Position numbers and translations under genes: made by a program
Notes under the pieces: model-generated
Told to the model about the DNA's origin: nothing
Databases searched by the model: none
The model's input: only the letters and a program-made list of their open reading frames with translations
Shown: piece after piece, positions 6,562-56,869 of the stretch
Layout: the number at the start of each line of letters is the position of its first letter
Position numbering within the stretch: the first letter of the stretch is position 1
From: an uncultured Clostridia bacterium
Lineage (GTDB): Bacteria > Bacillota > Clostridia > TANB77 > CAG-508
DNA length: 56,869 nt
Assembly (NCBI GenBank): GCA_944392445.1
Contig: CALXWT010000003.1
Location: 1 to 56,869 of the forward strand
Direction of reading: 5' to 3'

Positions 6562-6638
6562 GGCGAGATAGCTCAGTTGGCTAGAGCAACTGGTTCATAC
6601 CCAGTGGGTCGAGAGTTCGAATCTCCCTCTCGCTACCA
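6562..6638 (+). tRNA. tRNA with CAT anticodon, most like elongator tRNA-Met (tRNA-Ile2/lysidine not excluded)
   Basis: 77-nt cloverleaf: acceptor GGCGAGA/TCTCGCT, D arm GCTC-AGTTGGCTA-GAGC, anticodon stem ACTGG/CCAGT with loop TTCATAC, T loop TTCGAAT, encoded CCA end. Confidence 0.85.
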
Positions 6639-24331: not shown

Positions 24332-24742
24332 TTAAACAGGTAGCTCTAAGTATTGTTCAACCATGTTATGGTTGGAATCATATACTTGATGCAAGGTTAT
24401 ATTGATTATACTACCAACCTCTACTTGATTATAGAGAGTTATTGAATCTATTGTGGTAGTTATATCGCCATAACCTATAGTTATATGGTTGTACTCGGGA
24501 ATTACCTGAGGGACTGAGCGAGTTCCGCCAAAGGTCCAATGTTCTTTATGGACTACCTCCAAATCCTTATGTTCTTTAGAAAGTACAGTACCCTGAACTT
24601 GGGTATACTCGTGAGTATACTGAGTTGTATCCGAGTACTTTTCTGAATCGGGGATAGCTACATAGTTAGAGTAAGTAATTACAGGTACGATAAGAACTAG
24701 TACAATAACAATGCTAAGAGTTAACCGTTTTACAATTTTCAT
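24332..24742 (-). CDS. Orphan membrane-anchored protein, 136 aa, GC-shifted
   Basis: N-terminal TM (LTLSIVIVLVLIVPVI), then a His/Thr/Tyr-rich domain. SD is AAAGGAGA. Hand counts give 20, 29 and 26 G+C per 60 nt inside the gene. Confidence 0.6.
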   Translation of the reverse strand: MKIVKRLTLSIVIVLVLIVPVITYSNYVAIPDSEKYSDTTQYTHEYTQVQGTVLSKEHKDLEVVHKEHWTFGGTRSVPQVIPEYNHITIGYGDITTTIDSITLYNQVEVGSIINITLHQVYDSNHNMVEQYLELPV

Positions 24743-48008: not shown

Positions 48009-48226
48009 CATTAAAGATAAAGTAAATATTTTAATTCCCTGCGTAGTGCGTGTAGACTGGAATTTTAGAACCAACAATAGATTAAAGGGAGTCCGCCTTT
48101 GGATGTGGCGTGTAAGCTTACATTTTTCAATAGTAAGAAACCCAGGAGCATTCAACAAGACACCCACCTGTGAAAACAGGCTCTTAAAATTTCATTCATC
48201 TTGCGGCTAATGTGGGGTATTTTTTG
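48009..48226 (+). ncRNA. Candidate structured small RNA, 6S (SsrS)-like
   Basis: A GC-enriched ~215-nt stretch lies in an otherwise AT-rich 460-nt gap with its own promoter. The 5' segment UUCCCUGCG..CUGGAAUUUUAGAAC can pair with the 3' segment GCUCUUAAAAUUUC..UUGCGG..GGGG. It ends in a T-run. The only ORFs here are mutually overlapping and lack an SD. Confidence 0.45.
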
Positions 48227-54218: not shown

Positions 54219-54494
54219 ATGCAAATAACAGATGTACGTTTAAGAAAAGTAAATTCAGAGAACAGAATGAAAGCTGTTGCTTCTGTAACATTCGATAATG
54301 AGTTCGTTGTACACGACATAAAAGTTATCGAGAGCCAAGATGGATTATTTATAGCTATGCCTAGCAGAAAAACTCCAAACGGAGAATTCAAAGATATAGC
54401 TCATCCAATAAATCCAGAGACAAGAGAGAAAATTCAAAAAGCTATATTAGAAGCTTATGAAGCTCCTGAAGCTGAAAACAATTCAGCAGAATAA
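54219..54494 (+). CDS. spoVG: Septation/sporulation regulator SpoVG
   Basis: [38 protein letters not shown]...[23 protein letters not shown] is canonical SpoVG. Confidence 0.95.
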
Positions 54495-54512
54495 TAAATA
54501 TAAAAATTAGAG

Positions 54513-54542
54513 CCACCATACTATGAAAGTATGGTGGTTTTT
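54513..54542 (+). terminator. spoVG intrinsic terminator (left edge of the GC-rich island)
   Basis: CCACCATAC-TATGAAA-GTATGGTGG followed by TTTTT. Confidence 0.8.
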
Positions 54543-54581
54543 CGGGCGCTTAAACTAATAAGCTACCGGGTGAACAGAGAT

Positions 54582-55064
54582 TCAGCTGAGGACCTTAAAC
54601 AGGTTGTCGACAGCCATAGACAAGGCCAATACCTTTGTCTCAAAAATGACGGTTAATATGGCTTTCGCCTTTGGGTACTTCCCCTCATTTTCGAGGGTGA
54701 TTTCGGTAATTCCGATTCGGAAGATGCACTTCCGGCTTCTTCGAGCTCCCACCACTGATGAGAGCATGTTGAATTTCGTCGCGAACAGGCTGATTTGCTT
54801 TCTCTCCCTAACAGTAGGAAGTTTCAAGTTGTTACATAACATTCTGACAGGTATTGATGCCTTTTTTAGCTTTTCGTCAGCCGTGCTGAGAAACGGATAG
54901 AACGTCAAACGTTCTTCACCTTTTGTGGTGGTTTCAAACTTGACCATGTAATTGGCCAAGTTGCAGAGCTCTACATCGGATTTGGAGAGTTCGGAGATGA
55001 AACTCCGAAAACTCCGAGGAACGTCACGATACAAGGGTAGCTCAATTTTGTAAGTTTCACTCAT
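54582..55064 (-). CDS. Orphan protein, 160 aa, GC-rich island gene 2 (no family recognised)
   Basis: ATG at 55064 with GAGGT 8 nt upstream. Hand counts give 25, 30 and 30 G+C per 60 nt at 54601-54780. I found no TM segment or catalytic motif. Confidence 0.7.
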   Translation of the reverse strand: MSETYKIELPLYRDVPRSFRSFISELSKSDVELCNLANYMVKFETTTKGEERLTFYPFLSTADEKLKKASIPVRMLCNNLKLPTVRERKQISLFATKFNMLSSVVGARRSRKCIFRIGITEITLENEGKYPKAKAILTVIFETKVLALSMAVDNLFKVLS

Positions 55065-55134
55065 TTTGTTTTACCTCGTTTCCTTGTTTGTTGTTTCTGT
55101 TCACGTTACAACTATAAAAATATAGCATACATAT

Positions 55135-55163
55135 ATTATACTACTAAAAGGGGAAAAAGGCAA
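55135..55163 (-). promoter_or_regulatory. Promoter of the 160-aa island gene
   Basis: On the minus strand: TTGCCT (55163-55158), 17-nt spacer, TATAAT (55140-55135), followed by a ~65-nt leader. Confidence 0.55.
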
Positions 55164-55235
55164 ATTACAGGGCTTTTAGACAAATTTTATTTGATGTGAA
55201 TTTAGCTTTATAGATAGAAAACGGATATAAAAGAA

Positions 55236-55261
55236 GGCAGGCGCAGAAACCTGCACCTGCC
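55236..55261 (-). terminator. Intrinsic terminator between the two island genes
   Basis: On the minus strand: GGCAGGTGCAG-GTTT-CTGCGCCTGCC (one G-U pair), then TTCTTTTAT. It lies 10 nt after the 104-aa gene stop. Confidence 0.75.
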
Positions 55262-55270
55262 AAGACAGAG

Positions 55271-55585
55271 TTAGCCGTTATACAATGTCCTGAAGAGGAT
55301 GATATCCTCATCTTTCTCCAAGTACATCTGCATTCTCTGCGTAATGGCGACAGAGTCGTTATCTACGTAGAGTGGGCAGTCGTTCCCAATCAGCTTCCTG
55401 GTCAAATCAATGATCTCAGTGAGGTCACGCCAAATGACCTTGTTAAGGAATTCCTTAACCTGCCAAGACCTAGTACCGTCCTGTTTAGTAGTGTGGTACT
55501 TTTCGAGGACTACACCAGTGCTAGTTTCCCGCAATAGGTAACCTTCAGGGGTTTCACGGCAAGAGATGAATGTTACGTTTTTCAT
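55271..55585 (-). CDS. Orphan protein, 104 aa, GC-rich island gene 1 (no family recognised)
   Basis: ATG at 55585 with AGGAG 6 nt upstream. Hand count gives 29 G+C per 60 nt at 55321-55380. Soluble, with no motif recognised. Confidence 0.7.
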   Translation of the reverse strand: MKNVTFISCRETPEGYLLRETSTGVVLEKYHTTKQDGTRSWQVKEFLNKVIWRDLTEIIDLTRKLIGNDCPLYVDNDSVAITQRMQMYLEKDEDIILFRTLYNG

Positions 55586-55622
55586 AATGTACTCCTTTTC
55601 TGTCTTTTATAAATACATAAAA

Positions 55623-55651
55623 AATATACTCTGTTAATCGTATTATGTCAA
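55623..55651 (-). promoter_or_regulatory. Promoter of the 104-aa island gene
   Basis: On the minus strand: TTGACA (55651-55646), 17-nt spacer, TATATT (55628-55623). Confidence 0.6.
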
Positions 55652-55688
55652 ACAAAAAAAGTAATGGAGCAGAAAATATCTGCCCCAT
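55652..55688 (-). terminator. asnS intrinsic terminator
   Basis: On the minus strand: ATGGGGCAG-ATATTTT-CTGCTCCAT, then TACTTTTTTTG. It is preceded by an (AT)7 run at 55699-55712. Confidence 0.7.
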
Positions 55689-55725
55689 ACTATAAATTAT
55701 ATATATATATATCAAATTTTTAACA

Positions 55726-56869
55726 TTAGAATTCGCAATTCTTTGGTGTCCTTGGGAAAGGTAGTACATCTCTAATATTTTGAATACCTGTTAAATACAT
55801 CATCATTCTTTCAAATCCTAAACCAAAACCTGAATGTGGACAACTACCATATTTACGTAAGTCTAGGTACCACCAATAATCTTCTTCTGATAAATTTAAT
55901 TCTTTCATTCTCTTAGATAGTTTTTCAAAGTCATCTTCTCTTTGGCTACCACCAATTATTTCTCCGATTCCAGAAACAAGTAAATCAGCTGCTGCAACTG
56001 TTTTTCCGTCTGGATTTTGTTTCATATAAAAGGCTTTAATCTCAGTTGGATAATCTGTAACAAATACAGGGCGCTTAAATACAACTTCACTTAAATACCT
56101 TTCATGCTCTGTTTGAATATCAGTTCCCCAGTGAACAGGAAACTCAAATTTATCGTTTACTTTTTCTAGTTCTTTAATTGCATCAGTATATGTAATTCTT
56201 CCAAAATCAGAATTTACTACATTATCTAATTTTTCAAATAATCCTGTATCAATAAATTTATTAAAGAATTCCATTTCCTCAGGAGCATTTTCTCTAACAT
56301 AAGTAATAATGTACTTAATCATTTCTTCTGCTAAATCCATTGCATCTTTTAAATCTGCAAAGCATATTTCAGGTTCTATCATCCAAAATTCTGCAGCATG
56401 CTTTACAGTATTTGAGTTTTCAGCTCTAAATGTAGGTCCAAATGTATATACATTTCTAAATGCATGTGCAAAAGTTTCTACATCAAGTTGTCCACTAACT
56501 GTCAAATGAGAAGATTTTCCAAAAAAGTCTTGAGAAAAATCTACACTTCCATCTTCTGCTTTAGGTAGGTTGTCCATATCTAATGAAGTAACTCTAAACA
56601 TTTCTCCGGCACCCTCACAGTCACTACCTGTAATTATTGGAGCATGAACATATACAAATCCTTTTTCTTGAAAGAATTTGTGTATTGCATAAGAAAGTAC
56701 AGACCTTACTCTAAATACGGCATTAAATGTATTTGTTCTTGGACGCAAGTGAGCAATAGTTCTTAAGTATTCAAAAGAATGTTTTTTCTTTTGAAGTGGG
56801 TAATTTAAATCTGCTAGATTTACCACTTGGACTTTGCTAGCTTTTATTTCAAAAGGTTGTTTCGCATTT
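55726..56869 (-). CDS. asnS: Asparagine--tRNA ligase (C-terminal ~380 codons; N-terminus lies beyond the window end)
   Basis: Class II aaRS motifs FRAE, GSQRE, and C-terminal [34 protein letters not shown]. The frame stays open to position 56869. Confidence 0.9.

Follow-up and report, generated by a model that had tools for sequence, protein, structure and literature searches.

The stretch of DNA considered here, 56.9 kb of an uncultured Clostridia bacterium and called the window throughout, carries between asnS and spoVG two small minus-strand genes, A and B, whose composition sets them apart from the AT-rich genome around them. We read them, with a probability of about 0.6, as two unrelated and independently transcribed orphan genes whose GC excess is held by selection at the level of the mRNA. 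What this reading describes, namely two independent orphan genes, with B ancestral and syntenic, that make neither a recent island nor a pair, is very probably right. What it proposes as a cause, that selection on the mRNA (on its stability, its structure or its translation rate) maintains the composition, is put forward tentatively, as one possible account. The coordinates of both genes and of their signals are collected in Table 1, and the loci of relatives are designated by L-numbers.

Composition and coding status of the two genes

The initial annotation had pointed to a sharp GC shift right after the spoVG terminator, and this is borne out (0.42-0.48 versus 0.26-0.33). Measured over segments of 200 nt, GC is 0.435-0.48 at 54500-54900, 0.42 at 54800-55100 and 0.435-0.46 at 55200-55600, as against 0.255-0.33 in the flanks, and the A/B block is the sole segment of the window that reaches 0.47. 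This is not a uniform block of GC-rich DNA, because the excess is confined to the third codon positions of A and B; the spacer between the two genes is AT-rich and host-like. At the first, second and third codon positions GC is 0.44, 0.32 and 0.59 in A, and 0.41, 0.37 and 0.56 in B. The first two positions are host-like in both genes, whereas the GC content of third positions (GC3), 0.56-0.59, compares with 0.16 in native genes. When the whole window is scanned, open reading frames (ORFs) with GC3 above 0.35 occur solely in this block. Elsewhere, the plausible genes of at least 90 aa have GC3 values of 0.09-0.24, with one exception (0.32), an ORF at 24332-24742 to which we return below. The codons of A and B are the rarest of the host: CTC makes up 33% of leucine codons versus 1% in native genes, and the corresponding shares are 44% versus 1% for GTC, 50% versus 3% for ATC and 22% versus 0% for CGG.

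GC-rich patches in a genome of 29% GC are often structured RNAs, and for this reason the coding status of both ORFs was tested directly. Between alleles, the ratio of nonsynonymous to synonymous divergence (dN/dS, after Nei and Gojobori) is 0.07-0.11 for A and 0.07 for B, and the indels that separate alleles or orthologues of either gene are in frame, by multiples of three. Both ORFs are real protein-coding genes under purifying selection. As for the remainder of the initial description, the coordinates and lengths it gave for the two minus-strand ORFs are exact. Both promoters, the GC-rich terminator after A and the terminators of asnS and spoVG were recovered by a consensus scan, and the view that each gene is a separate transcription unit is supported by its own predicted promoter and terminator. 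A 98-aa ORF on the plus strand (54604-54900) overlaps B in antisense, with the third codon positions of the two in common. In all likelihood it is no gene and owes its existence to the GC richness of these positions, which leave few antisense stop codons.

The asnS-spoVG interval in relatives

Relatives of the window show the interval between asnS and spoVG in three states. It holds A only (680 bp) in L001-L006 and L119. It holds B only in loci that include L015, L016-23, L024, L028 and L031, the interval then measuring 823 bp (as in L015) or 652 bp. Finally, it holds both genes (1231-1260 bp) in the window, L013/14, L007/8, L012, L115 and L117. Since all three states are found at the same site, A and B are independent and make no pair, and the notion that the two genes are kept side by side as a system does not survive. 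Alignment of the intervals has each module running from its own promoter to its own terminator, to be gained or lost at the module edges, where the junctions display short T-rich or TTCA microhomologies only. The A-only lineage is the most often sampled, its A allele being present on 140 contigs; as it is the deletion of B which defines this lineage (L001-6), B is dispensable.

Distant lineages hold B without A, and B is then always convergent, tail to tail, with spoVG. The conserved order reads S10 operon ... asnS - B - spoVG - murC - transglycosylase - hemN - whiA, and every member of the B family with enough flank is convergent with spoVG within the murC-transglycosylase-hemN-whiA synteny. 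The identity of B to the window protein goes down through 87, 52, 43, 35 and 29% alongside murC identities of 99, 87, 84, 84 and 77%, and orthologues reach down to about 25-30% identity, still beside spoVG. The promoter and leader of B can be aligned between the window and L016 (TTGCAT-17-TATAAT), where the protein is 46% identical, while in L024, L028, L031 and L035 B is preceded by promoters of sigma-A-like or extended -10 type. B is inherited vertically at one fixed site beside spoVG. It is older at this site than the species; it is also clade-restricted and evolves several times faster than its neighbours. The range of the family seems limited to a single clade of uncultured low-GC gut Clostridia. 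In a survey of 80 spoVG loci of GTDB species representatives, a clear B was seen in L035 and a weak one in L042 among the matches listed; this survey missed the window's own species and therefore cannot bound the distribution of the family.

That the block was horizontally acquired cargo, as the initial annotation had it, fails for B, which lies at the same spoVG-adjacent site in every clade sampled with an identity that tracks murC. The foreign look itself is genuine as far as composition goes, and it is misleading as a sign of recent acquisition for B. The comparison of the junction in relatives cuts both ways: they carry B, which speaks against recent cargo, and what they retain is an anomalous composition, not a core-like one.

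Gene A has a narrower range. It was seen in the window's species group only, always between asnS and B or spoVG; its homologues make 9 clusters at 90% identity, all at least 78% identical, and no relative was detected outside the species group. A is a younger orphan, wedged between the asnS terminator and the promoter of B. Profile-profile comparison of A with B, as a test for a diverged duplicate, gave no relation. In the window allele alone, a 17-nt deletion in the promoter and leader of A (55605-55625) removes ATATAAATTAGGTACAT and turns the -10 box, a perfect TATAAT in other A alleles, into TATATT.

The composition of B has lasted along with its position. GC3 of B is 0.56 in the window, 0.44 in L007, 0.35 in L016, 0.35 in L028, 0.51 in L031, 0.50 in L024 and 0.32 in L035, when host genes in those seven loci have 0.09-0.20. 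Between lineages, the synonymous divergence (dS) of core genes is saturated, at 1.0-1.2 for asnS and murC. In a two-state decay model of our own, a dS of 1.1 and an equilibrium GC3 of about 0.15 leave some tenth of an initial excess, so that the GC3 values observed for B speak for maintenance or for repeated re-seeding. Because B is ancestral, its foreign-like composition is expected to decay, yet it is kept: the GC excess is a persistent property of synonymous sites and no fading trace of a donor. Among the alleles of the species group GC3 ranges from 0.43 to 0.56. Singleton synonymous changes in A and B, once polarised, comprise 21 from GC to AT and 17 from AT to GC, where decay with the bias of the host would give about 7:1 (P=3e-6).

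Recombination has made a mosaic of the entire region. A and B of the window match those of L013 at 99-100% identity, when murC reaches about 88% only; with L007, identity is about 98% for murC and 70-74% for the middle of B; and in L015 the allele type changes close to the 3' end of B. Between the window and L007, dS is 0.04 for asnS, 0.53 for A and 1.25 for B. A 10-30-fold excess of the synonymous rate of A/B over the flanks was considered and rejected because the flanks are mosaic; at matched comparisons, synonymous divergence in A/B is about 2-3.5 times that of the flanks. This is roughly as expected for GC-rich synonymous sites under AT-biased mutation.

Several features of the surroundings deserve a word. 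Across the clade spoVG is 96-100% identical, and its dS is 0.00-0.02 within the species group, where its neighbours have 0.04-0.38, and 0.09-0.11 between clades, versus 1.0-1.2. This points to strong constraint on the synonymous sites of spoVG, via expression level or a function at the RNA level. In L009 (88-4039), an ISL3 transposase gene and two IS256-type (Transposase_mut) genes stand directly upstream of B in the place of A; insertions are thus tolerated between asnS and B. In L024 (233-988) and in L025-L027, a 251-aa RelA/SpoT-like gene, resembling small alarmone synthetases, stands upstream of B instead of asnS; L024, the most distant lineage that bears B, also has a longer spoVG (119 aa). 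In L028 (2721-4101, 5021-6194) and L029, both murC and hemN appear as two separate ORFs, which could reflect frameshifts, pseudogenes or assembly errors, the split being present in two independent assemblies. Finally, small ORFs of 82-151 aa with GC3 of 0.36-0.43 lie on the opposite strand downstream of spoVG in several GTDB relatives, some of them directly convergent (L036 4386-4634, L039 4460-4711, L042 3680-4060, L063 5058-5513 and L070 4379-4756). The one in L042 alone weakly resembles the B profile (E=0.03), and the others may be very divergent relatives of B or unrelated orphans at the same site.

Transcript folding and protein products

The B transcript (54513-55128, minus strand) is predicted to fold with an energy of -200 kcal/mol, versus -145 +/- 7 for dinucleotide shuffles (z=-8.05), and the A transcript has a z of -4.96 in the same test. 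As dinucleotide shuffles mix AT-rich untranslated regions (UTRs) with GC-rich coding sequence, the test was repeated on coding sequence only, by permuting synonymous codons with protein and codon usage fixed. Under this codon shuffle, z for B is -4.54 in the window, -3.50 in L007, -4.40 in L016, -2.37 in L024 and -1.89 in L031. It is about -1.9 for the A alleles of the window and L001. The 26 native genes of the window that were treated in this way have a mean of -0.61, a standard deviation of 0.94 and a minimum of -2.66. The synonymous codons of B are arranged to pair beyond chance in at least three lineages.

A consensus computed with RNAalifold on seven B alleles keeps most of the local hairpins and contains 17 pairs with compensatory double changes, where shuffles have 5.1 +/- 1.7 and slid controls 2-6. 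One such change, in the stem AACTTGGCCA...TGGTCAAGTT of the B coding sequence, turns TTG/GTC into TTA/GTT. Individual hairpins of B are not conserved between clades, and the data hint at selection for folding of the transcript as such rather than for any particular structure. In both transcripts, moreover, 8-9 nt of the 5'UTR just upstream of the Shine-Dalgarno sequence show perfect complementarity to the part of the 3'UTR that directly follows the stop codon: 55599-55606 (AAGACAGA) with 55262-55269 for A, and 55096-55104 (GTGAACAGA) with 54570-54578 for B. Within the species group every A allele has this complementarity, as do most B alleles (L117 does not); it was not found in B of the other clades, and no covariation accompanies it. 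A search of the whole window with Rfam 15 at the gathering score gave no match in the block. With a permissive threshold (E up to 5) on 54300-55900 no family emerged, the best match having 25.6 bits versus a gathering score of 45.

Turning to the proteins, B homologues make 10 clusters at 90% identity, and an exhaustive search of 1.84 billion representatives with the B profile retrieved 26 clusters only (at 50% identity, E<1e-3), no member of which is named in any source. All but two of these clusters are single-domain proteins of about 140-175 aa, the exceptions being a 111-aa chimera and a 1069-aa protein with a match in multiple stretches. In the chimera (P0008, from an ENA contig of 2099 bp), the N-terminal part is a cation-efflux-like segment (PF01545) and the C-terminal part consists of the last 63 residues of B; it is a rearrangement or an assembly artefact. 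The alignment of 28 family sequences keeps the motifs LPLYxEPSxxFxxF, RLxFxP, SIP, ISxFATKFNMLxS and DNLFKVL. Its invariant or near-invariant residues are phenylalanine, proline and asparagine, and it holds no conserved constellation of cysteine, histidine, aspartate or glutamate that would point to catalysis. Isoelectric points span 4.8-9.9 across the family, hence no conserved charge for binding nucleic acids. No signal peptide or membrane segment was found in B, whose grand average of hydropathy (GRAVY) is -0.08. B is likely to be a small soluble binding protein without enzymatic activity, to judge from these features and from its model.

This AlphaFold2 model of B, built from ten sequences, has a predicted local confidence (pLDDT) of 83 and a predicted template-modelling score (pTM) of 0.83, with the topology beta-alpha-alpha-beta-beta-beta-long alpha-beta-beta-alpha. 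Foldseek found no match to it with E<0.1 in PDB and BFVD. The best PDB match had E=0.12, template-modelling (TM) scores were 0.27-0.33, and several of the top non-significant matches were SRPBCC proteins (3ijt, 6ies, 5ygv, 3e85). B does share with SRPBCC or Bet v 1-like proteins a small alpha/beta shape and an antiparallel sheet packed against long helices. Assignment to that family was nevertheless rejected, given this E value, the low TM scores, a different topology and no Pfam or PDB profile match. The predicted fold, absent from the solved and viral structure libraries searched (PDB, BFVD), is apparently novel. For A, which is soluble by its GRAVY of -0.44, the AlphaFold2 model is poor (pLDDT 49), too poor for a structure search.

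With sequence profiles the outcome is similar. Neither A nor B matched Pfam, PHROGs, PADLOC or NCBIfam at E<0.01; Pfam run on 28 members of the B family gave scattered single weak matches without consistency; and sequence and profile searches of PDB with three queries (A1, A2, A3) yielded nothing below E=0.2. That no family could be named for either protein thus still holds after Pfam, PHROGs, PADLOC, NCBIfam, PDB and, for B, Foldseek. In the literature we found no description of an orphan next to spoVG, or of maintained GC-rich genes in AT-rich bacteria.

Table 1. Genes and predicted signals between asnS and spoVG in the window
Feature	Position	Strand	Basis and remarks
asnS intrinsic terminator	55664..55688	-	10-bp stem and T-run; present in all species-group alleles; the A module starts right after the T-run
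Predicted promoter of gene A, TTGACA-17-TATATT	55623..55651	-	Consensus scan
Shine-Dalgarno sequence of gene A, AGGAG	55592..55596	-	From sequence; GGAG/GAGG in other alleles
Gene A, 104-aa acidic soluble orphan protein, GC3 0.59	55271..55585	-	ORF
Intrinsic terminator of gene A, GC-rich	55236..55261	-	11 pairs, 8 of them G-C; kept in all A alleles
Predicted promoter of gene B, TTGCCT-17-TATAAT, then a leader of about 65 nt	55135..55163	-	Consensus scan
Shine-Dalgarno sequence of gene B, GAGGT	55073..55077	-	From sequence; same across clades
Gene B, 160-aa soluble alpha/beta protein, GC3 0.56, hairpin-rich coding sequence	54582..55064	-	ORF
Bidirectional terminator common to convergent B (-) and spoVG (+)	54513..54537		Minus-strand hairpin by scan; the same palindrome and TTTTT end spoVG on the plus strand
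spoVG, conserved convergent neighbour of B	54219..54494	+	Pfam SpoVG on orthologues

Elsewhere in the window, two matches only reach the Rfam gathering score, a 6S RNA at 48033-48222 on the plus strand (106.9 bits), with prmC-whiA directly downstream, and a single tRNA at 6562-6635 on the same strand. The ORF at 24332-24742 (minus strand), which has the next highest GC3 after A and B, is a 136-aa orphan without Pfam match, and its neighbours lie on the other strand. Its N-terminus carries a membrane or signal segment, it has a perfect promoter TTGACA-17-TGnTATAAT at 24868-24840, and its codon-shuffle z is -2.06.

Weighing the explanations

If mRNA-level selection is indeed at work, the following scenario may be proposed. 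Each gene would be transcribed alone, from a sigma-A-type promoter, into a monocistronic mRNA that would be GC-rich, strongly folded and full of codons rare in the host. Such an mRNA would probably persist for long, yet its translation would be slow in a cell adapted to codons ending in A or U. Its composition might be kept by selection on the transcript – for stability against AU-directed RNases, for translation rate, or for both – and the output, a small binding protein and not an enzyme, would be low or would depend on conditions. The neighbours of B are genes of growth phase, division and envelope (spoVG, whiA, murC, transglycosylase), and since it is always found together with spoVG it may act in the same regulatory neighbourhood, that of growth phase or envelope. 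A bolder version, that the synonymous sites of B, and perhaps of A, have been held off the genomic equilibrium by selection on the transcript throughout the history of the clade, beside the gene of the RNA-binding regulator SpoVG, strikes us as doubtful. The trait under selection would then be the stability of a hairpin-dense mRNA, its translation rate or a second role at the RNA level. If true, the locus would show how mRNA structure and rare codons can be kept by selection over long times in an AT-rich bacterium, and B might be a gene with a dual function, as RNA and as protein.

A number of points weigh against the proposal that mRNA-level selection holds the GC excess, or limit its reach. 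The promoters and terminators are predictions that consist of consensus matches. Set against a native-gene control, the singleton result falls short of significance (P=0.11); this control showed an unexpected excess of AT-to-GC changes, which is probably an artefact of parsimony in biased sequence, and the argument for maintenance rests on persistence across clades, not on this test. GC3 of B spreads from 0.32 to 0.56 between clades, so that unequal decay could explain part of the pattern. In the codon-shuffle test, two B lineages and both A alleles fall within the tail of native genes (z about -1.9 to -2.4). As regards covariation, about 7 of the 17 pairs lie in misaligned, non-homologous UTRs of one allele (L117), and the B structure put to the test was derived from the same alignment, which comprises about four independent lineages. 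Synteny was checked for about 8 of the 26 clusters of the B family. Finally, it is position only that links B to SpoVG.

The reading initially favoured, that of an island of recent arrival with a toxin/immunity, sensor/effector or anti-phage pair on it, has some appeal in view of the foreign-like composition and codon usage, of two orphan genes each with its own predicted promoter, of alleles far more divergent than some of their flanks (the window allele, WIN, versus L007), and of a site which tolerates insertions such as the IS elements of L009. It is nonetheless very improbable, and largely refuted by the genomes in which A or B stands alone, among close and distant relatives, with B syntenic with spoVG clade-wide and following the divergence of the host. 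The block itself contains no integrase, transposase, flanking direct repeat, tRNA or att target, which confirms the initial annotation as to integrase, transposase and repeats. Profile searches of IMG/VR with the A and B alignments gave no match, tblastn against INPHARED phages and PLSDB plasmids matched neither gene, PADLOC returned 0 matches, and PHROGs none that was credible. The neighbours (asnS, spoVG, murC and the S10 ribosomal operon) are housekeeping genes, with no defence island or prophage, and a dN/dS of 0.07 shows no sign of diversifying selection. The two genes are not obligate neighbours and form no operon, and neither has homology to a known toxin, antitoxin or immunity family. 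No co-occurrence in unrelated genomes, defence islands or prophages was found, and as the initial annotation had made such co-occurrence a touchstone of its candidate system, that candidate falls on its own terms. For the purpose of prioritising defence or toxin genes, the locus is a poor candidate.

A foreign origin might also be of a recurrent kind, with repeated replacement by homologous recombination via the conserved flanks from an unsampled, GC-richer reservoir, be it a phage, a plasmid or a sister taxon, which would leave the composition too little time to decay. Allele divergence far above that of the flanks in some strain pairs, the variation of GC3 from 0.43 to 0.56 among species-group alleles, and an A gene without detectable ancestor would fit. 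The proposal looks improbable, however, when only 26 clusters are known among 1.84 billion representatives, all those with readable context being chromosomal and beside spoVG, when IMG/VR, INPHARED and PLSDB yielded no viral or plasmid copies, and when B divergence follows that of the host. GC at first and second codon positions is host-like, and amino-acid composition native-like.

A regional process requires neither a donor nor selection on the mRNA. GC-biased gene conversion, acting at a recombining locus rich in alleles, would push synonymous sites toward G and C as a by-product. It accords with the clear mosaic pattern of L013, L007 and L015 and with the 2-3.5-fold synonymous divergence of A/B relative to the flanks, and it predicts that two unrelated genes should be anomalous together. 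We hold it to be rather unlikely, as the mosaic pattern is just as marked in murC, asnS and the transglycosylase gene, whose GC3 values are nevertheless 0.13-0.19, as the A-B spacer is AT-rich, and as gene conversion does not predict synonymous codons which fold better than their own shuffles. Folding of this kind would fit structured RNAs as the functional products, alone or beside the proteins in the manner of dual-function RNAs; the GC-rich hairpins would then be what is selected, and the ORFs would be spurious or of secondary importance. To this may be added the usual identity of GC-rich segments in a genome of 29% GC, the dinucleotide z values of -8.05 and -4.96 together with the extreme codon-shuffle z of B, the compensatory changes in hairpins inside the coding sequence, and the 8-9-nt complementarity between 5'UTR and 3'UTR of both transcripts. 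An RNA-only reading is excluded by dN/dS of 0.07-0.11, by GC at third positions, by in-frame indels and by the confidently predicted fold of B. The same signs of purifying selection on a protein, with the lack of an Rfam family and of hairpins kept between clades, make functional RNA products in general distinctly unlikely. Whichever process prevails, B – vertically inherited, with a GC3 that exceeds that of its neighbours three- to fourfold, and folding better than its own synonymous shuffles – is a concrete case for selection or biased conversion acting on the synonymous sites of a single gene.

Several known systems may help to place the locus. With genomic islands and 'morons' it shares a compositional step at terminators, atypical composition and codon usage, a promoter and a terminator for each gene, and a site between the terminators of core genes. 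It differs from them in that there is no integrase, tRNA/att site, repeat or other signature of mobility, no patchy distribution across unrelated taxa and no phage or plasmid copy found; B is syntenic clade-wide, and synonymous positions alone are atypical. Atypical GC and codon usage, a standard flag for horizontal transfer, is thus misleading here, as the flagged gene B is older at its site than the species. This should be taken as a caution for island-calling in AT-rich metagenome-assembled genomes.

The type I toxin mRNAs of the hok type are highly structured and long-lived, pair their 5' and 3' ends, and encode small hydrophobic peptides. The A and B transcripts resemble them in being monocistronic and strongly folded and, within the species group, in the short complementarity of their UTRs. 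What they encode, however, is soluble proteins (104 and 160 aa); their pairing extends over 8-9 nt only, without covariation, and does not occur in B of other clades; and no antisense RNA gene was seen, nor any antisense promoter of note in the scan. The bldA/TTA genes of Streptomyces are developmental genes gated by a rare codon, with one specific codon and one tRNA. They recall A and B by their codons rare in the host, in a compositionally extreme genome, and developmental genes, spoVG and whiA, are neighbours here. By analogy, translation of A and B could be coupled to tRNA availability or growth phase, with the difference that here it is the whole synonymous profile that is shifted, not one codon.

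The closest description is that of taxonomically restricted orphan genes, which, like A and B, are short, fast-evolving, without detectable family, limited to a narrow clade and dispensable in some lineages, and which occur as single monocistronic units in intergenic gaps between core genes. Bacterial orphan genes are usually AT-richer than their host or similar to it, and decay toward its composition. B departs from this habit in its GC-shifted third positions and host-rare codons, kept across species that are synonymously saturated, as well as in strong purifying selection and a confident, apparently novel predicted fold. Its family, unannotated and with a predicted structure that has no neighbour in the libraries searched, belongs to common gut Clostridia. 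The A/B locus is one of lineage-restricted orphan genes with an unusual compositional property.

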